From a virus (lineage: Duplodnaviria; Heunggongvirae; Uroviricota; Caudoviricetes), in IMG/VR virus record IMGVR_UViG_2778261252_000002: DNA of 6,224 nucleotides; one strand, given 5' to 3'. The notes beneath the pieces were generated by a model that saw nothing but the letters and a program-made list of their open reading frames with translations, made no database searches and was not told the DNA's origin. Shown in pieces: positions 1 to 6,224 of this stretch. The translations under genes and the position numbers were made by a program. Numbering within the stretch: position 1 is the stretch's first letter; each line of letters opens with the position of its first letter.

Positions 1-402
1 ATGCTGAACGTGTCGCTGGCGCTGATGCTGGCACTGTCCCTGATTTACCCGCAGAGCGTGGCCGTCAGTTTTGTCGCTGCCTGGGCGATTCTGGCGACGG
101 TTATCTGTGTGGTTGCCGGTGGTGTCGGCGTTTATGCCACTGAGTATGTGCTGGAACGCTACGGGCGGGAGCTGCCGCCGGAGTCGCTGGCCGTGAAGAT
201 TGTCATGTCGCTGTTTTTGCAGCCAGTGCCGTGGTGCAGACGGGCGGCGGCTCTGGTGGTGATGGTGGCGACATTTATCTCGCTGGTCGCTGCCGGGTGG
301 ATTTTTACCGCGCTGATTTATCTCGTGGCGTCGGTGTTCTTCCGGCTGATACGTACGGCCTGCCGTCAACGTCTTGAGGGGCGGGAACCATGTCAAAGCT
401 GA
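1..402 (+). CDS. lysA: LysA-like multi-pass membrane protein (lysis timing / holin-associated); true start may lie upstream of the window
   Basis: Open frame from nt 1 to TGA at 400-402. The translation is dominated by hydrophobic stretches consistent with about 4 TM helices. It sits immediately upstream of, and overlaps by 13 nt, an Rz-like gene, as in the P2 lysA-lysB-lysC arrangement. Confidence 0.6.
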   Translation: MLNVSLALMLALSLIYPQSVAVSFVAAWAILATVICVVAGGVGVYATEYVLERYGRELPPESLAVKIVMSLFLQPVPWCRRAAALVVMVATFISLVAAGWIFTALIYLVASVFFRLIRTACRQRLEGREPCQS

Positions 403-815
403 TGATTGTGATGGTTGTGTTGTTATCGCTGGCGGTGGCGGGGCTGTTTCTGGCGAAGCATGAAAACGCCAGCCTGCGCGCCTCGCTGGACAGGGTGAAC
501 AACGTCGCCAGTGAACAGCAGACGACCATCACCATGCTGAAAAATCAGCTTCATGTTGCCCTCACCAGGGCAGACAAAAACGAGCTGGCGCAGGTGGCAC
601 TGCGTCAGGAACTGGAGAACGCCGCGAAGCGTGAAGCACAGCGCGAGAAAACCATCACGAGGTTACTTAATGAAAACGAAGATTTTCGCCGCTGGTACGG
701 CGCTGACCTGCCTGATGCTGTGCGCCGGTTGCACCAGCGCCCCGCCTGCACCGACGCCAGTGATTGTCCACAACGCCTGCCCGAAAGTGAGCCTTTGCCC
801 GATGCCGGGCAGTGA
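390..815 (+). CDS. lysB: Rz-like inner-membrane spanin (i-spanin), P2 LysB homolog
   Basis: 141-aa ORF with an N-terminal TM anchor ([19 protein letters not shown]), a charged Q/E/R/K/A-rich coiled-coil-like periplasmic region and a C-terminal [15 protein letters not shown] motif typical of Rz proteins. A GAGGGGCGGG Shine-Dalgarno-like stretch lies upstream of the ATG at 390. A lipoprotein gene is embedded in the +1 frame. Confidence 0.7.
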
Positions 816-1212
816 CCCGCAGACGAACGGTGATTTAAGTGCCGATAACCGTACCTGCTCTGATGATCCGCTGTTCATCTTTGAAAACTACACCCGCACC
901 GCGCAGGTGCTGGCCGACACGATGGCTGAGGCGCACATGTGGGCGGTGGACAAGCCCATCACCGCAACGCTGATTCGCGACATCGTTGACGGCATCAATG
1001 CCAAATTCCGTGAGCTGAAAACAAACGGCTATATCGTGGATGCGACCTGCTGGTTCAGCGAAGAATCCAACGATGCGGAAACCCTCAAGGCCGGAAAACT
1101 GTATATCGACTACGACTATACACCGGTGCCTCCTCTCGAAAACCTGACCCTGCGCCAGCGTATTACCGATAAATACCTGGCAAATCTGGTCACCTCGGTT
1201 AACAGCAATTAA
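670..1212 (+). CDS. Chimeric ORF: N-terminal ~60 aa of an Rz1-like outer-membrane lipoprotein spanin (LysC) fused in frame to a tail sheath (FI) C-terminal domain
   Basis: ATG at 670 is preceded by GAGG (659-662) and lies inside lysB in another frame. The N-terminus is [21 protein letters not shown], a signal peptide with a lipobox-like Cys, followed by a proline-rich segment ([11 protein letters not shown]...CPMPGSDPQ) characteristic of Rz1/LysC. From about codon 63 onward the sequence ([18 protein letters not shown]...[36 protein letters not shown]) is globular and unlike an o-spanin. It ends 12 nt before the tube gene with AAGGAG overlapping its stop, which is the position of the sheath gene 3' end. 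Confidence 0.55.
856..1212 (+). pseudogene. FI: 3' fragment of contractile tail sheath gene (FI), C-terminal domain only; 5' boundary approximate (+/- ~15 nt)
   Basis: This is the only sheath-like coding sequence in the window, about 120 codons where a functional sheath needs about 390. It lies immediately upstream of FII with the typical short intergenic spacer. No start codon or RBS of its own; it is read in frame with the lysC 5' portion. Confidence 0.5.
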
Positions 1213-1216
1213 GGAG
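1211..1216 (+). promoter_or_regulatory. Shine-Dalgarno sequence (AAGGAG) for FII
   Basis: AAGGAG lies 8 nt upstream of the ATG at 1225 and overlaps the stop codon of the preceding ORF. Confidence 0.6.
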
Positions 1217-1224
1217 CCTGACCG

Positions 1225-1743
1225 ATGGCAATGCCGCGCAAACTCAAGTTAATGAACGTCTTTCTGAACGGCTACAGCTATCAGGGCGTTGCAAAGTCCG
1301 TCACGCTGCCAAAACTGACCCGTAAGCTCGAAAACTATCGCGGTGCGGGGATGAACGGCAGCGCACCGGTAGACCTCGGCCTTGATGACGATGCGCTGTC
1401 AATGGAGTGGTCGCTCGGTGGTTTCCCGGATTCGGTTATCTGGGAGCTTTACGCAGCAACCGGTGTGGATGCCGTGCCGATTCGTTTTGCAGGCTCTTAC
1501 CAGCGCGACGATACCGGCGAAACGGTGGCCGTCGAGGTAGTCATGCGTGGACGTCAGAAAGAAATCGACACCGGAGAGGGTAAACAGGGAGAAGACACCG
1601 AGTCGAAAATCTCCGTGGTCTGCACCTATTTCCGGCTGACGATGGACGGTAAGGAGCTGGTCGAAATCGACACCATCAACATGATTGAGAAGGTGAACGG
1701 CGTCGACCGGCTGGAGCAACACCGCCGCAATATCGGCCTGTGA
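1225..1743 (+). CDS. FII: Contractile tail tube protein (P2 gpFII homolog)
   Basis: 172-aa ORF with a strong RBS. It sits directly upstream of the E/E'-T-U-D cluster. The length matches the P2 tube protein as I recall it, and the N-terminus MAMPRKLKLMNVFLNGYSYQGVAKSVTLPKLTRKLENYRGAGMNG looks tube-like. Confidence 0.85.
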   Translation: MAMPRKLKLMNVFLNGYSYQGVAKSVTLPKLTRKLENYRGAGMNGSAPVDLGLDDDALSMEWSLGGFPDSVIWELYAATGVDAVPIRFAGSYQRDDTGETVAVEVVMRGRQKEIDTGEGKQGEDTESKISVVCTYFRLTMDGKELVEIDTINMIEKVNGVDRLEQHRRNIGL

Positions 1744-1750
1744 TTTTCAT

Positions 1751-1771
1751 CCGGTCAGCCAGGCTGACCGG
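1751..1771 (+). repeat. Perfect 10-bp inverted repeat (CCGGTCAGCC A GGCTGACCGG) in the FII-E intergenic region; potential RNA hairpin or partial terminator
   Basis: Read directly from the sequence: 1751-1760 is the exact reverse complement of 1762-1771. It lies 8 nt after the FII stop and is not followed by a U-tract. Confidence 0.5.
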
Positions 1772-1799
1772 TTAACCCTGATTCAGAAGTGAGAAAACC

Positions 1800-2075
1800 A
1801 TGAACAAAGAAAATGTGATTACCCTGGACAATCCGGTCAAGCGTGGTGAGCAGGTTATCGAACAGGTCACGCTGATGAAACCCAATGCCGGGACGCTGCG
1901 CGGTGTCAGTCTGGCTGCGGTCGCGAACTCCGAAGTCGATGCACTGATTAAAGTGCTGCCGCGCATGACGGCACCGATGCTGACCGAACAGGAGGTCGCC
2001 GCGCTGGAACTGCCTGACCTTGTGGCGCTGGCCGGTAAGGTGGTCGGTTTTTTGTCGCCGAACTCGGTGCAGTGA
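1800..2075 (+). CDS. E: Tail assembly chaperone gpE (unshifted product)
   Basis: 91-aa ORF between the tube and tape measure genes. It contains the T_TTT_TTG slippery heptamer near its 3' end. This is the equivalent of lambda G and P2 E. Confidence 0.85.
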   Translation: MNKENVITLDNPVKRGEQVIEQVTLMKPNAGTLRGVSLAAVANSEVDALIKVLPRMTAPMLTEQEVAALELPDLVALAGKVVGFLSPNSVQ

Positions 2076-2227
2076 CGTTTCCGAAAAATCTCTCGGTCGA
2101 TGACCTGATGGCGGATGTGGCAGTGATATTTCACTGGCCGCCATCAGAACTGTATCCCATGAGCCTGACCGAACTCATCACATGGCGCGAAAAGGCGCTC
2201 CGGCGAAGCGGAAACACGAATGAGTAA
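1800..2227 (+). CDS. E': Tail assembly chaperone gpE+E', made by a programmed -1 ribosomal frameshift at 2048-2054; about 142 aa
   Basis: The -1 frame is open from 2054 to TAA at 2225-2227 and encodes VAELGAVTFPKNLSVDDLMADVAVIFHWPPSELYPMSLTELITWREKALRRSGNTNE. This frame has no start codon of its own and overlaps the T start by 8 nt. This is the architecture described for P2 E/E' and lambda G/GT. Confidence 0.75.
2048..2054 (+). promoter_or_regulatory. Slippery heptamer T_TTT_TTG (X_XXY_YYZ) for the -1 programmed frameshift
   Basis: In the E frame the codons are GGT TTT TTG (2046-2054). The six-T run followed by G is in the correct zero-frame phase for tandem tRNA slippage. Confidence 0.75.
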
Positions 2228-4667
2228 CAATGTAAAATTACAGGTATTGCTCAGGGCTGTTGACCAGGCATCCCGCCCGTTTAAATCCATCCGCACAGCG
2301 AGCAAATCGCTGTCGGGGGATATCCGGGAAACACAAAAATCACTGCGCGAGCTGAACGGTCACGCATCCCGTATTGAGGGATTCCGCAAGACCAGTGCAC
2401 AGCTCGCCGTGACTGGTCAGGAACTGAAAAAAGCCAGACAGGAAGCCGCAGCTCTGGCTGTCCAGTTTAAAAATACTGAACGACCGACAAATGCACAGGC
2501 AAAGGCAATGGAAGCCGCGCGTAAAAATGCGTCTGAGTTACAGGTGAAATATAACAGCCTGAGATTGTCGGTACAGCGCCAGCGTCAGGAATTGAGTCAG
2601 GCGGGTATTAATACCCGTAATCTGGCGCATGATGAACGAGGACTGAAAAACCGTATCAGTGAAACCACCGCACAGCTTAACCGGCAGCGTGACGCGCTGG
2701 CGCGTGTCAGTGCACAACAGGCAAAACTTAACGCAGTAAAACAGCGTTATCAGGCCGGAAAGGAACTGGCCGGAAATATGGCCTCGGTGGGCGCTGCCGG
2801 TGTGGGGATTGCGGCGGCGGGAACGATGGCCGGAGTTAAGCTGCTGATGCCCGGTTATGAGTTTGCGCAGAAAAACTCAGAATTGCAGGCCGTGCTCGGT
2901 GTGGCAAAAGACTCCACCGAAATGGCTGCACTACGCAAGCAGGCGCGTCAGCTCGGCGACAATACCGCAGCCTCGGCAGATGATGCAGCTGGTGCGCAGA
3001 TTATTATTGCGAAAGCCGGTGGGGATGTTGATGCCATTCAGGCGGCAACGCCGGTCACGCTGAATATGGCGCTGGCGAACCGTCGCACAATGGAAGAAAA
3101 CGCCGCCCTGCTGATGGGGATGAAATCCGCCTTTCAGCTTTCAAACGATAAGGTCGCTCATATCGGGGATGTTCTCTCCATGACGATGAACAAAACCGCC
3201 GCTGATTTTGACGGCATGAGCGATGCGCTGACCTATACCGCACCAGTGGCAAAAAATGCCGGTGTCAGCATTGAAGAAACCGCCGCAATGGTCGGGGCGC
3301 TGCATGATGCAAAAATCACAGGCTCAATGGCGGGGACGGGAAGCCGTGCCGTGTTAAGCCGCCTGCAGGCACCGACGGGAAAAGCATGGGATGCACTCAA
3401 AGAGCTTGGTGTGAAAACCTCAGACAGCAAGGGAAACACCCGACCAGTATTTACCATTCTGAAAGAAATGCAGGCCAGTTTTGAGAAAAACCGGCTCGGT
3501 ACTGCCCAGCAGGCTGAATACATGAAAACCATTTTCGGGGAGGAGGCCAGTTCAGCCGCCGCCGTGCTGATGACTGCCGCCTCAACCGGAAAGCTGGACA
3601 AACTGACCGCTGCGTTTAAAGCCTCAGACGGAAAGACCGCAGAGCTGGTAAATATCATGCAGGACAACCTCGGCGGTGAATTTAAGGAGTTTCAGTCCGC
3701 TTATGAGGCGGTGGGGACTGACCTGTTTGACCAGCAGGAAGGCGCACTGCGTAAGCTCACGCAGACGGCCACAAAGTATGTGTTAAAACTCGACGGCTGG
3801 ATCCAGAAAAACAAATCACTGGCGTCAACCATCGGCCTCATTGTCGGTGGCGCGCTGGCGCTTATTGGCATCATCGGTGCCATTGGTCTGGTAGCCTGGC
3901 CGGTTATCACCGGCATCAATGCCATCATCGCGGCAGCAGGCGCAATGGGGGCAATCTTCACGACGGTTGGCAGTGCTGTTATGACCGCCATCGGGGCGAT
4001 TAGCTGGCCGGTTGTGGCCGTGGTGGCCGCAATTGTCGCCGGGGCGTTGCTTATCCGTAAATACTGGGAGCCTGTCAGCGCATTCTTTGGCGGTGTGGTT
4101 GAAGGGCTGAAAGTGGCATTTGCGCCGGTGGGGGAACTGTTCACGCCACTTAAGCCGGTGTTTGACTGGCTGGGTGAAAAGTTACAGGCCGCGTGGCAGT
4201 GGTTTAAAAACCTGATTGCCCCGGTCAAAGCCACTCAGGACACCCTGAACAGTTGCCGTGACACGGGGGTCATGTTCGGGCAGGCACTGGCTGACGCGCT
4301 GATGCTGCCGCTTAATGTGTTCAACAAACTGCGCAGCGGTATTGACTGGGTACTGGAAAAACTCGGCGTCATCAACAAAGAGTCTGACGCACTTGACCAG
4401 ACTGCCGCCAGAACTCATGCCGCCACGTATGGCACAGGTGATTATATTCCGGCGACCGGCTCTTATGCGGGGTATCAGGCTTACCAGCCGGTCACGGCAC
4501 CGGCTGGCCGCTCTTATGTGGACCAGAGTAAAAACGAATATCACATCAATCTGACGGGCGGTACTGCGCCGGGGACACAGCTCGACCGCCATTTACAGGA
4601 TGCGCTCGAAAAATACGAGCGGGATAAACGTGCGCGCGCCCGTGCCAGCATGATGCATGACGGTTAA
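2220..4667 (+). CDS. T: Tail tape measure protein (P2 gpT homolog)
   Basis: 815-aa ORF. The N-terminal third is rich in Q/R/K/A/E heptad-like sequence (coiled coil), there is a central Gly/Ala/Ile-rich hydrophobic block, and it sits immediately downstream of the frameshifted chaperone. This position and composition are canonical for a tape measure protein. Confidence 0.9.
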   Translation: MSNNVKLQVLLRAVDQASRPFKSIRTASKSLSGDIRETQKSLRELNGHASRIEGFRKTSAQLAVTGQELKKARQEAAALAVQFKNTERPTNAQAKAMEAARKNASELQVKYNSLRLSVQRQRQELSQAGINTRNLAHDERGLKNRISETTAQLNRQRDALARVSAQQAKLNAVKQRYQAGKELAGNMASVGAAGVGIAAAGTMAGVKLLMPGYEFAQKNSELQAVLGVAKDSTEMAALRKQARQLGDNTAASADDAAGAQIIIAKAGGDVDAIQAATPVTLNMALANRRTMEENAALLMGMKSAFQLSNDKVAHIGDVLSMTMNKTAADFDGMSDALTYTAPVAKNAGVSIEETAAMVGALHDAKITGSMAGTGSRAVLSRLQAPTGKAWDALKELGVKTSDSKGNTRPVFTILKEMQASFEKNRLGTAQQAEYMKTIFGEEASSAAAVLMTAASTGKLDKLTAAFKASDGKTAELVNIMQDNLGGEFKEFQSAYEAVGTDLFDQQEGALRKLTQTATKYVLKLDGWIQKNKSLASTIGLIVGGALALIGIIGAIGLVAWPVITGINAIIAAAGAMGAIFTTVGSAVMTAIGAISWPVVAVVAAIVAGALLIRKYWEPVSAFFGGVVEGLKVAFAPVGELFTPLKPVFDWLGEKLQAAWQWFKNLIAPVKATQDTLNSCRDTGVMFGQALADALMLPLNVFNKLRSGIDWVLEKLGVINKESDALDQTAARTHAATYGTGDYIPATGSYAGYQAYQPVTAPAGRSYVDQSKNEYHINLTGGTAPGTQLDRHLQDALEKYERDKRARARASMMHDG

Positions 4668-4675
4668 GGAGGTGA
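4666..4675 (+). promoter_or_regulatory. Shine-Dalgarno sequence (AAGGAGGTGA) for U
   Basis: A near-consensus SD lies 8 nt upstream of the ATG at 4682 and overlaps the T stop codon. Confidence 0.6.
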
Positions 4676-4681
4676 CGAAAA

Positions 4682-5161
4682 ATGATGCTCGCGTTAGGTA
4701 TGTTTGTTTTTATGCGCCAGACGCTGCCACACCAGACCATGCAGCGTGAATCAGATTATCGCTGGCCGTCAAATTCCCGTATCGGTAAACGGGACGCCTA
4801 CCAGTTTCTCGGTGTGGGTGAGGAAAACATCACGCTTGCCGGTGTGCTTTATCCAGAACTGACCGGCGGCAAGCTGACGATGACCACGCTCAGGCTGATG
4901 GCAGAGGAAGGCCGGGCGTGGCCGTTGCTGGATGGCACCGGCATGATTTACGGCATGTATGTCATCAGCAGGGTGAGTGAAACAGGGAGTATTTTCTTTG
5001 CAGACGGCACACCCCGGAAAATTGATTTTACGTTGTCGCTCACCCGCGTTGATGAATCACTGGCCGCGCTTTATGGCGATATCGGTAAACAGGCGGAATC
5101 GCTCATCGGTAAGGCTGGCAGTATGGCGACTAAATTCACGGGTATGACGGGGGCGGGATAA
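4682..5161 (+). CDS. U: Tail protein gpU (tail tube terminator / tail completion-like)
   Basis: 159-aa ORF with a strong RBS between the tape measure and D genes. Its stop overlaps the D start as TAATG. Size and position match P2 gpU. Confidence 0.85.
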   Translation: MMLALGMFVFMRQTLPHQTMQRESDYRWPSNSRIGKRDAYQFLGVGEENITLAGVLYPELTGGKLTMTTLRLMAEEGRAWPLLDGTGMIYGMYVISRVSETGSIFFADGTPRKIDFTLSLTRVDESLAALYGDIGKQAESLIGKAGSMATKFTGMTGAG

Positions 5162-6224
5162 TGCTGGACGCGCTGACATTTGATGCAGGCAGTACGCTGA
5201 CGCCGGATTACATGCTGATGCTCGACAGCAGGGATATTACCGGCAATATCAGCGACCGTCTGATGAGCATGACCCTGACGGATAACCGGGGCTTTGAGGC
5301 TGACCAGCTTGATATTGAACTGAACGATGCCGACGGGCAGGTCGGGCTGCCGGTTCGTGGCGCTGTCCTGACGGTGTATATCGGCTGGAAAGGTTTTGCC
5401 CTGGTATGCAAAGGGAAATTTACCGTTGATGAGGTTGAACACCGGGGCGCACCGGATGTGGTCACCATCCGCGCCCGGAGTGCAGATTTCCGCGGGACGC
5501 TCAATTCCCGCCGTGAAGGCTCCTGGCATGACACCACGCTCGGTGCGATTGTTGAGGCGATAGCCTCCCGTAACAGACTGGAAGCCAGTGTCGCTCCGTC
5601 ACTGGCCGGAATTAAAATCCCGCACATCGACCAGTCGCAGGAGTCTGATGCGAAATTCCTGACCCGTCTTGCAGAACGCAACGGCGGTGAGGTGTCGGTA
5701 AAAATGGGAAAACTGCTGTTTCTCAAAGCGGGGCAGGGGGTGACTGCCAGCGGTAAAAAAATCCCGCAGATTACCATCACCCGCAGCGACGGTGACCGTC
5801 ATCATTTTGCGATTGCTGACCGTGGCGCCTATACCGGCGTAACGGCAAAGTGGTTACACACCAAAGACCCGAAGCCACAAAAGCAGAAGGTAAAACTGAA
5901 ACGCAAAAAGAAAGAGAAACACCTGCGCGCACTGGAGCACCCGAAAGCGAAACCAGTCACGCAGAAGAAAGCGCCAAAAGTACCGGAAGCACGCGAAGGT
6001 GAATACATGGCTGGTGAGGCTGACAACGTTTTTGCCCTGACCACGGTATATGCCACGAAAGCGCAGGCCATGCGCGCCGCTCAGGCGAAGTGGGATAAGC
6101 TGCAACGGGGCGTTGCGGAGTTCTCCATCAGTCTGGCTACTGGTCGGGCAGATATTTACACGGAAACGCCGGTCAAAGTGTCAGGCTTTAAGCGCGTCAT
6201 AGACGAGCAGGACTGGACAATCAC
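5161..6224 (+). CDS. D: Tail/baseplate hub protein gpD (late control gene D; gp27/VgrG-N-terminal-like), 3'-truncated by the window edge
   Basis: The frame is open from ATG 5161 to the end of the window (354 codons, no stop), which I checked by manual translation. The N-terminus is MLDALTFDAGSTLTPDYMLMLDSRDITGNISDRLMSMTLTDNRGFEADQLDIELNDADGQ. It is translationally coupled to U. It is absent from the supplied ORF track only because it has no in-window stop. Confidence 0.85.
   Translation, partial: MLDALTFDAGSTLTPDYMLMLDSRDITGNISDRLMSMTLTDNRGFEADQLDIELNDADGQVGLPVRGAVLTVYIGWKGFALVCKGKFTVDEVEHRGAPDVVTIRARSADFRGTLNSRREGSWHDTTLGAIVEAIASRNRLEASVAPSLAGIKIPHIDQSQESDAKFLTRLAERNGGEVSVKMGKLLFLKAGQGVTASGKKIPQITITRSDGDRHHFAIADRGAYTGVTAKWLHTKDPKPQKQKVKLKRKKKEKHLRALEHPKAKPVTQKKAPKVPEAREGEYMAGEADNVFALTTVYATKAQAMRAAQAKWDKLQRGVAEFSISLATGRADIYTETPVKVSGFKRVIDEQDWTI

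Follow-up and report, generated by a model that had tools for sequence, protein, structure and literature searches.

A probably recent internal deletion in a P2-like prophage of Escherichia coli and a recurrent breakpoint in the tail sheath gene FI

In phage P2 (Peduovirus P2, NC_001895), the lysis genes lysA, lysB and lysC precede a long interval that ends in the tail genes FI, FII, E/E', T, U and D. Defective P2-like prophages and their decay by deletions at short homologies are already well known. The ogrK-yegZ remnant of Escherichia coli K-12 and the defective prophage of E. coli B are further examples, with internal deletions that leave the attR-proximal FII-D-ogr end in place. P2-related tail genes are also retained by the host without the full phage in the R-type tailocins. 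Here we analyze a 6,224-bp stretch of viral DNA, hereafter the window, which is one entire draft contig (NODQ01000066.1, assembly GCA_002474525.1); both window ends are contig ends. The window has the P2 gene order lysA, lysB, lysC ... FI, FII, E/E', T, U, D at approximately 95–96% nucleotide identity, and shares the frameshift site and the gene overlaps of P2. It differs from P2 in lacking positions 8379–18476 and the promoter pF, in having the F-operon genes joined to the O operon, and in having FI present as a C-terminal domain fused to LysC. We consider the window to be part of a P2-like (Peduovirus) prophage of E. coli, now defective, from which a single illegitimate recombination between lysC (P2 8378) and FI (P2 18477) has recently removed about 10 kb, and whose remaining genes are intact through recency (probability about 0.85).

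In these terms the original observation on this DNA is routine: a fresh deletion in a defective P2-like prophage, whose intact tail-core genes are uninformative on selection. The FI end of the deletion, on the other hand, coincides with a single bond at which many other prophages are broken, a hotspot that did not turn up in our literature search. A targeted search on P2-like prophage remnants, deletions and the tail sheath found no report of a single-bond, bidirectional, recurrent breakpoint in FI.

The deletion and its parental sequence

A megablast search with positions 846–6224, which make up 86% of the window, returned 83 Peduovirus (P2-like) phage records at approximately 96% identity (95.8–96.7% to P2, P37, fiAA91-ss and others) and about 1,550 E. 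coli chromosomes at 95–100%. Positions 1–845 match the lysis region of the same Peduovirus phages, and in intact prophages the two blocks lie about 10 kb apart. The prophage nearest to the window is undeleted and lies at yegQ in E. coli GF43 (NZ_CP172127, locus L001). Window 1–851 corresponds to L001 2575–3425 with one mismatch, at the junction base (99.88% identity), and window 846–6224 corresponds to L001 14001–19379, where one base of 5,379 differs, at position 877 in the FI remnant (99.98%). From FII to D there are no substitutions relative to the GF43 prophage; unrelated P2-like prophages diverge by 2–6%. E. coli EC77 also carries an undeleted P2-like prophage at yegQ, and across both window blocks GF43 and EC77 are 99.9–100% identical to the window. 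The yegQ prophage is thus effectively the parental sequence, except that GF43 keeps R through FI and the window lacks all of these.

In GF43 the two collinear blocks are separated by 10,581 bp, which bears out the internal deletion proposed in a preliminary description of the window made from its sequence alone. The genes gone from the window are the 3' part of lysC, R, S, the gene at the orf30 position, V, W, J, I, H, G, the open reading frame (ORF) at the Z/fun position and FI codons 1–275. The window therefore does not represent a viable P2-like prophage, as R, S, V, W, J, I, H and G are absent between lysC and FI on this contig, nor does it hold a complete F operon (pF-FI-FII-E-T-U-D). The loss of the FI promoter region, also proposed in the preliminary description, is confirmed, since pF (P2 17555–17628) lies inside the missing interval together with the 275 FI codons. 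Projected onto P2, the window blocks are 7533–8383 and 18476–23854, and the missing interval is 8379–18476. The only exact microhomology at the junction is TA; the hexamer TAWCCG (846–851) agrees at five of six positions. As a separate observation on the parental prophage, an IS3-family insertion between S and V (L001 5037–6265) splits the gene at the orf30 position, so the GF43 prophage may itself be defective.

We asked whether the lysC|FI junction (the bar marks the joined bond) could be an assembly chimera in a short draft contig, the prophage in reality being complete. The window is indeed a 6.2-kb contig that ends inside genes, and the junction is absent from 5,426 complete E. coli genomes. 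Assemblers, however, require long exact overlaps, and the two parental sites share just TA, or five of six bases. A separate, independent assembly has the identical junction on a contig of 29 kb (L015), and the same FI endpoint is found in finished genomes (L002, L004, L007 and L009). The flanks of 845 and 5,379 bp are unique, which a collapsed repeat would not yield. A chimera is therefore very improbable.

The near identity to the undeleted GF43 prophage suggests that the deletion is very recent, in agreement with one of the two explanations that had been offered for the intact frames. The other, selection on the tail module, is unnecessary: with no substitutions between FII and D there is nothing to explain, and the frames are intact because too little time has passed since the deletion for decay. 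Several points weigh against this reading. The comparison with intact P2-like prophages that had been suggested was carried out, and because it found zero substitutions in FII-D relative to GF43, the ratio of nonsynonymous to synonymous substitution rates (dN/dS) is powerless here; selection is neither shown nor excluded by it. Only 6.2 kb of a draft genome are visible, and other contigs could hold a second P2-like prophage or the tail genes missing here; that the contig breaks off within lysA and within D hints at repeats. Finally, the FII-D-ogr block is intact in many independent remnants (L002, L005, L006, L007, L009, L010, L012 and L015), which could reflect selection besides mutational bias.

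A recurrent breakpoint in FI

The right-hand end of the deletion lies at the FI bond T18476|A18477 of P2 (window T846|A847, GGGGT|AACCGT), which is flanked by TTCCGCTTCTGGGGT on the left and AACCGTACCTGCTCTGATGA on the right. In P2-like prophages of E. coli, about 20 different types of junction end at this bond, and nucleotide sequence confirms 12 of them; FI is retained on the right side in 17 and on the left side in three. The gene has about 14 further types of internal junction, at scattered positions. If breakpoints were spread uniformly along FI, the concentration at this one bond would have a probability near 1e-52.

Nucleotide reading of L002/L003, L004 and L007 shows that FI is retained from exactly the same base (...|AACCGTACC), each time next to a different left partner: an antisense fragment of the terminase gene P in L002/L003, a prophage at cpxP-fieF; an inverted tail-fibre-assembly fragment in L004; and gene I in L007. 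A protein search, together with the 90% cluster of the window ORF, revealed fusions that begin at FI residue N276 and follow I (residue 39), J, capsid N, X, S, holin Y, R and L. Further partners are a DNA-invertase N-terminus, FI residue 45, FI residue 160 and one unidentified frame. Four of these fusions were verified on their contigs (L009–L012). Mirror events were recovered by a search seeded with FI residues 1–275: in these, FI is kept to ...CTGGGGT and joined to T, D or ogr (L016–L018).

Like the window, other defective P2-like prophages of E. coli (L002/L003, L004, L007, L009–L012 and L015) have internal deletions with short or imperfect homology and are left with the attR-proximal FII-D-ogr end, many of them with the identical FI endpoint. 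They differ from the window in that each has its own left partner and often several deletions; the exact junction of the window occurs only in L015. In many remnants the separate internal deletions number three or more, for example in L004, L008, L010 and L011. In L015 (SRR31599148), the identical lysC|FI join is found on its 29-kb contig, which also carries the head, lysis and tail-core genes in full. L015 and the window are 93.8% identical, and differences are present right beside the junction, at positions 820, 867 and 877. On the most parsimonious reading of these sequences, the junction would have arisen independently in the two prophages, and both partner sites therefore seem preferred. 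The lysC|FI junction of L015 is at its position 10040. A different deletion, in L010 (P2 8383|9162), likewise has its left end at the perfect lysC palindrome GAT|ATC (in the window, the region 844–849), which is there joined to a site in S (L010 6745–6751).

The pattern of these junctions also bears on whether the FII-E-T-U-D(-ogr) block is kept by selection as a domesticated module, which might complement or recombine with incoming P2-like phages, or disturb their tail assembly through the orphan sheath domain. The eight independent remnants listed above have different deletions and yet all five genes at full length, the right-hand side is retained in 17 of the 20 hotspot junctions, and the LysC'-'FI fusion of the window is in frame with a complete Phage_sheath_1C domain. 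The first count is weakened by further deletions that remove these genes in L004 (E' to D), L011 (inside T) and L008 (FI to D), and the second by the three hotspot events that delete rightwards, into T, D or ogr, as well as by a bias in the counting, most right-fixed events having come from the protein search seeded with the FI C-terminus. As to the reading frame, some hotspot junctions are out of frame or joined to antisense DNA (L004, L007), indicating that the precision lies at the level of DNA and not of protein. Together with the unsubstituted FII-D genes of the window, which leave nothing for selection to explain, these observations make a domesticated module improbable.

A minor cluster of breakpoints lies 12 nt to the left of the hotspot, at GGTTTC (P2 ~18462–18465; L008 at 9040–9049, P0013 and P0016). 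Remnants of the L008 type, in which the FI N-terminus is joined to the end of D, are present in roughly 50 complete genomes as estimated by ranked sampling. Another preferred site may lie just upstream of lysA, where two independent junctions fall within 7 nt of each other, at P2 7485 (L008) and 7492 (L006). No hotspot junction (HNAACCGTACCTGCTCTGATGA) turned up in scans of species-representative genomes and JGI metagenomes, collections that contain too few E. coli. An apparent case in another genus, in Pluralibacter gergoviae (P0022; L019 7010–7025), was rejected: an extra G in the GGGG run (TGGGGGCAACC) splits FI into two ORFs, which is a frameshift or sequencing error and not a deletion. 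The FI ORF on a 1,222-bp contig (P0130, ENA) ends in LSLIHI, which resembles a translated Nextera adapter; we take this to be adapter contamination and not a biological junction.

Junction anatomy and candidate causes of the breakpoint

The exact homology at hotspot joins is 0–4 nt (TA, TAAC, GTA, AA). At unrelated places the same remnants have further deletions, and these use ordinary imperfect homologies of 5–14 nt. Among the 17 partner sites whose parental sequence is known, likeness to FI is confined to positions -4 to +4 around the break, with the consensus GGAT|AWCC: G at -4 in 10 of 17, G at -3 in 11, T at -1 in 10, A at +1 in 16, C at +3 in 10 and C at +4 in 12. At -2 the commonest partner base is A (8/17); FI itself has G there. 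Positions +5 to +7 are at background, and from +5 on there is no likeness. The bases that follow the break in the product are always those of the right-hand parent.

We put forward, as a tentative proposal with a little less than an even chance of being right, that the FI bond GGGGT|AACCGT is a sequence-specific fragile site that is cut by an enzyme, most plausibly a type II topoisomerase and otherwise a nickase, and that the ends are rejoined to sites resembling GGAT|AWCC. We give the same somewhat-below-even standing to any enzyme-specific cause of the hotspot. A site-specific break at the FI bond followed by rejoining with low homology would be a likely route to the junction of the window.

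Gyrase-mediated illegitimate recombination is a known process that leaves little or no homology at the junctions. The leading candidate for the FI site is a strong site for DNA gyrase or topoisomerase IV, which would be cut as T|AACC|G, with trapped complexes giving deletions by subunit exchange or by breakage and rejoining. The break is precise to the nucleotide and two-sided, and the similarity among partners stops after +4, which equals the 4-bp stagger of these enzymes. In strong gyrase sites (Mu SGS, pSC101, pBR322), breakage likewise prefers particular sites, has a 4-bp register and leaves little or no junction homology (PMC6379681, PMC12324340). The reported preferences of bacterial type II topoisomerases are -4G/+8C, -2A/+6T and +1G/+4C (PMC12324340). 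The FI site has -4G, +4C, +6T and +8C, and the partners are enriched for -4G and +4C, with A the commonest base at -2; the +1 base of FI, however, is A instead of the preferred G, and its -2 base is G. By a crude score of the match to a 133-bp gyrase consensus (PMC6379681 supplement), FI ranks in the top 1.3% of P2 positions for the central part and in the top 0.3% for the core, and the observed register T|AACC|G is a local maximum. More than 100 P2 positions score equally and are not hot, and the recurrent lysC partner scores poorly. In contrast to the known gyrase systems, the match of FI to the consensus is moderate, and its products have a strand asymmetry not foreseen by the classical model: the four central bases come strictly from the right-hand parent, whereas simple annealing of overhangs would give those of either parent. 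We hold a topoisomerase site to be possible, on the doubtful side.

The second candidate is a hairpin that stalls replication or is cut, or a site-specific nickase (of the HUH type or other) that cuts the top strand at T|A, followed by rejoining with 0–4 nt of homology. An inverted repeat ACGGTT...AACCGT (in the region P2 18457–18482) places T|A exactly at the top of its 3' arm, and the mirror position, on the 5' arm, is where the minor breakpoint cluster lies. Deletions at the nick sites of rolling-circle origins are known for the same pattern, in which one end is fixed and the partners vary. The predicted fold (-8.1 kcal/mol, z = -2.35) is weak, as 5 of 200 shuffled sequences fold as well, and a polymerase would be expected to stall at the base of the stem and not at its top. 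No candidate nickase was identified, and the nick site of the P2 A protein (GCGCCTCG|GAGTCC, at 29892) is unlike FI. A hairpin or nickase therefore appears unlikely.

Other candidates were rejected. A pseudo-origin for the P2 A protein, an HUH nickase, is not supported, since the origin at 29892 and the FI sequence CTGGGGT|AACCGT show no similarity. Restriction of the BstEII/Eco91I type at GGTAACC would not single out this bond, as P2 has 12 GGTNACC sites, five of them within FI, and only this one is hot. EcoRV is not supported: the lysC partner is a perfect EcoRV site (GAT|ATC), but the FI sequence GGTAAC is off at two positions and the 13 other GATATC sites in P2 are not prominent. CRISPR self-targeting was dismissed because, in the 5,426 genomes, no partial match of spacer length to the 120-bp hotspot window appeared. 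Protection by Chi was also dismissed: neither P2 (L013) nor the window contains a Chi site (GCTGGTGG) in either orientation, and a break inside the prophage that is processed by RecBCD would therefore not be attenuated there. A model in which the direction of the replication fork accounts for one-sided deletions was dropped after the left-fixed events (L016–L018) emerged.

If the hotspot is as proposed, the FI site would account for more than half of the FI-internal deletion endpoints. It would then give E. coli a major, quasi-programmed means of disarming P2-like prophages, with the window as one product. It would explain the likeness among P2-like remnants that keep the attR-proximal FII-D-ogr block. 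Decay that runs through one precise bond is not random erosion and would depend on a specific interaction between DNA and enzyme. The hotspot, if real, would offer a natural, abundant and easily scored substrate for illegitimate recombination in vivo, and gyrase poisons (fluoroquinolones, CcdB or microcin B17, for example) might trigger its breaks. In assembly and annotation, its signature would be contigs or pseudogenes that begin exactly at NRTCSDD....

Gene content, expression of the tail genes and the LysC-FI fusion

Gene identities were assigned from the ORF list, a Pfam scan and direct reading of the sequence (Table 1). The window consists of two P2-like blocks, 1–847 with lysA', lysB and lysC', and 846–6224 with FI' to D, joined at the deletion of about 10 kb. 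The tail-core set FII-E-E'-T-U-D is present in P2 order, with every product in the expected Pfam family. The preliminary description had called all five tail-core frames fully intact; this is so for FII, E/E', T and U but not for D, which is open but cut by the contig end. The -1 slippery site predicted to produce E+E' corresponds to the frameshift annotated in the P2 record at 19685. The overlaps that this description took to couple translation are present as stated, between the E' stop and the T start and between the U stop and the D start. Contig ends such as those within lysA and within D usually represent repeats, and a further P2-like element with these flanks may be present in the genome.

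Table 1. Coordinates of features in the 6,224-bp window
Feature	Position	Strand	Remarks
lysA	1..402	+	First 24 nt missing (contig begins here); = L001 2575–2976 of annotated 2551–2976; Pfam LysA
lysB, Rz-like i-spanin, 141 aa, intact	390..815	+	Agrees with GF43 and P2 lysB annotation
LysC'-'FI chimeric ORF, 165 aa, in frame	715..1212	+	Pfam LysC and Phage_sheath_1C
Deletion junction T846|A847	846..847	.	= P2 T18476|A18477; left parent is the lysC palindrome GAT|ATC (P2 8376–8381)
FII, major tail tube protein, 172 aa, intact	1225..1743	+	Pfam Phage_tube, E=2e-60; ribosome-binding site AAGGAG upstream
Palindrome between FII and E, 9-bp stem, 3-nt loop, without T-run	1751..1771	+	Read from sequence
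E, tail assembly chaperone, 91 aa	1800..2075	+	Pfam Phage_TAC_7
E+E', tail assembly chaperone	1800..2227	+	Predicted via -1 frameshift at T TTT TTG (2048–2054); E' frame open to 2227; Pfam Phage_P2_GpE
T, tape measure protein, 815 aa, intact	2220..4667	+	Pfam PhageMin_Tail, E=3e-45; length as in P2 and GF43 T
U, tail protein, 159 aa, intact	4682..5161	+	Pfam Phage_P2_GpU, E=3e-44
D, tail/baseplate hub protein	5161..6224	+	Open for 354 of 387 codons, cut by contig end; Pfam Phage_GPD; GF43 D is 1,164 nt

The stem-loop in the gap between FII and E has a perfect stem and may be an element of RNA stability or processing; it is absent from the list of the terminator scan. That consensus scan of the window found no promoter-like or terminator-like sites above shuffle expectation, and its three weak terminator-like matches all lie between 1 and 1225, upstream of FII. 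According to the P2 annotation, the deleted interval 8379–18476 includes the attenuator of the O operon (8399–8417), its terminator (9397–9433) and the promoters pV and pF. Because every known terminator and both internal promoters are thus deleted and FII-D is now fused to the pO operon, read-through into FII-D from the upstream capsid-lysis operon, as had been suggested, is plausible. If transcribed at all, FII-D would form the tail end of this Ogr-activated operon.

Such an element could not build tails. That a tube, a tape measure and a hub cannot make a contractile tail without sheath and baseplate, as the preliminary description held, follows from established P2 biology. Its statement that sheath, baseplate and fibre genes are missing holds on this contig for baseplate and fibres, but not entirely for the sheath, of which 121 codons persist, fused to LysC. 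R-type tailocins require sheath, baseplate, fibres and a lysis cassette, and have no capsid genes. The window has lost sheath, baseplate and fibres and cannot be a tailocin, and the sister remnant L015 keeps its capsid genes.

In the fusion, LysC residues 1–44, comprising the signal peptide and lipobox region (715–846), are followed by FI residues 276–396 (847–1212), which contain the complete Phage_sheath_1C domain. Pfam places LysC at residues 1–45 of the chimera and Phage_sheath_1C at residues 49–151. LysC, an Rz1-like lipoprotein serving as the o-spanin, is truncated by the deletion and would be non-functional. If the chimera is expressed, the sheath domain would be sent to the envelope. 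Exact look-ups of the 165-aa ORF and of a 219-aa fusion ORF gave no entry, and a protein search with the junction ORF returned a shorter protein at 100% identity, encoded on a single contig of 6,224 bp. The gene caller began this protein at the ATG at 802 instead, giving a product of 136 aa (P0001).

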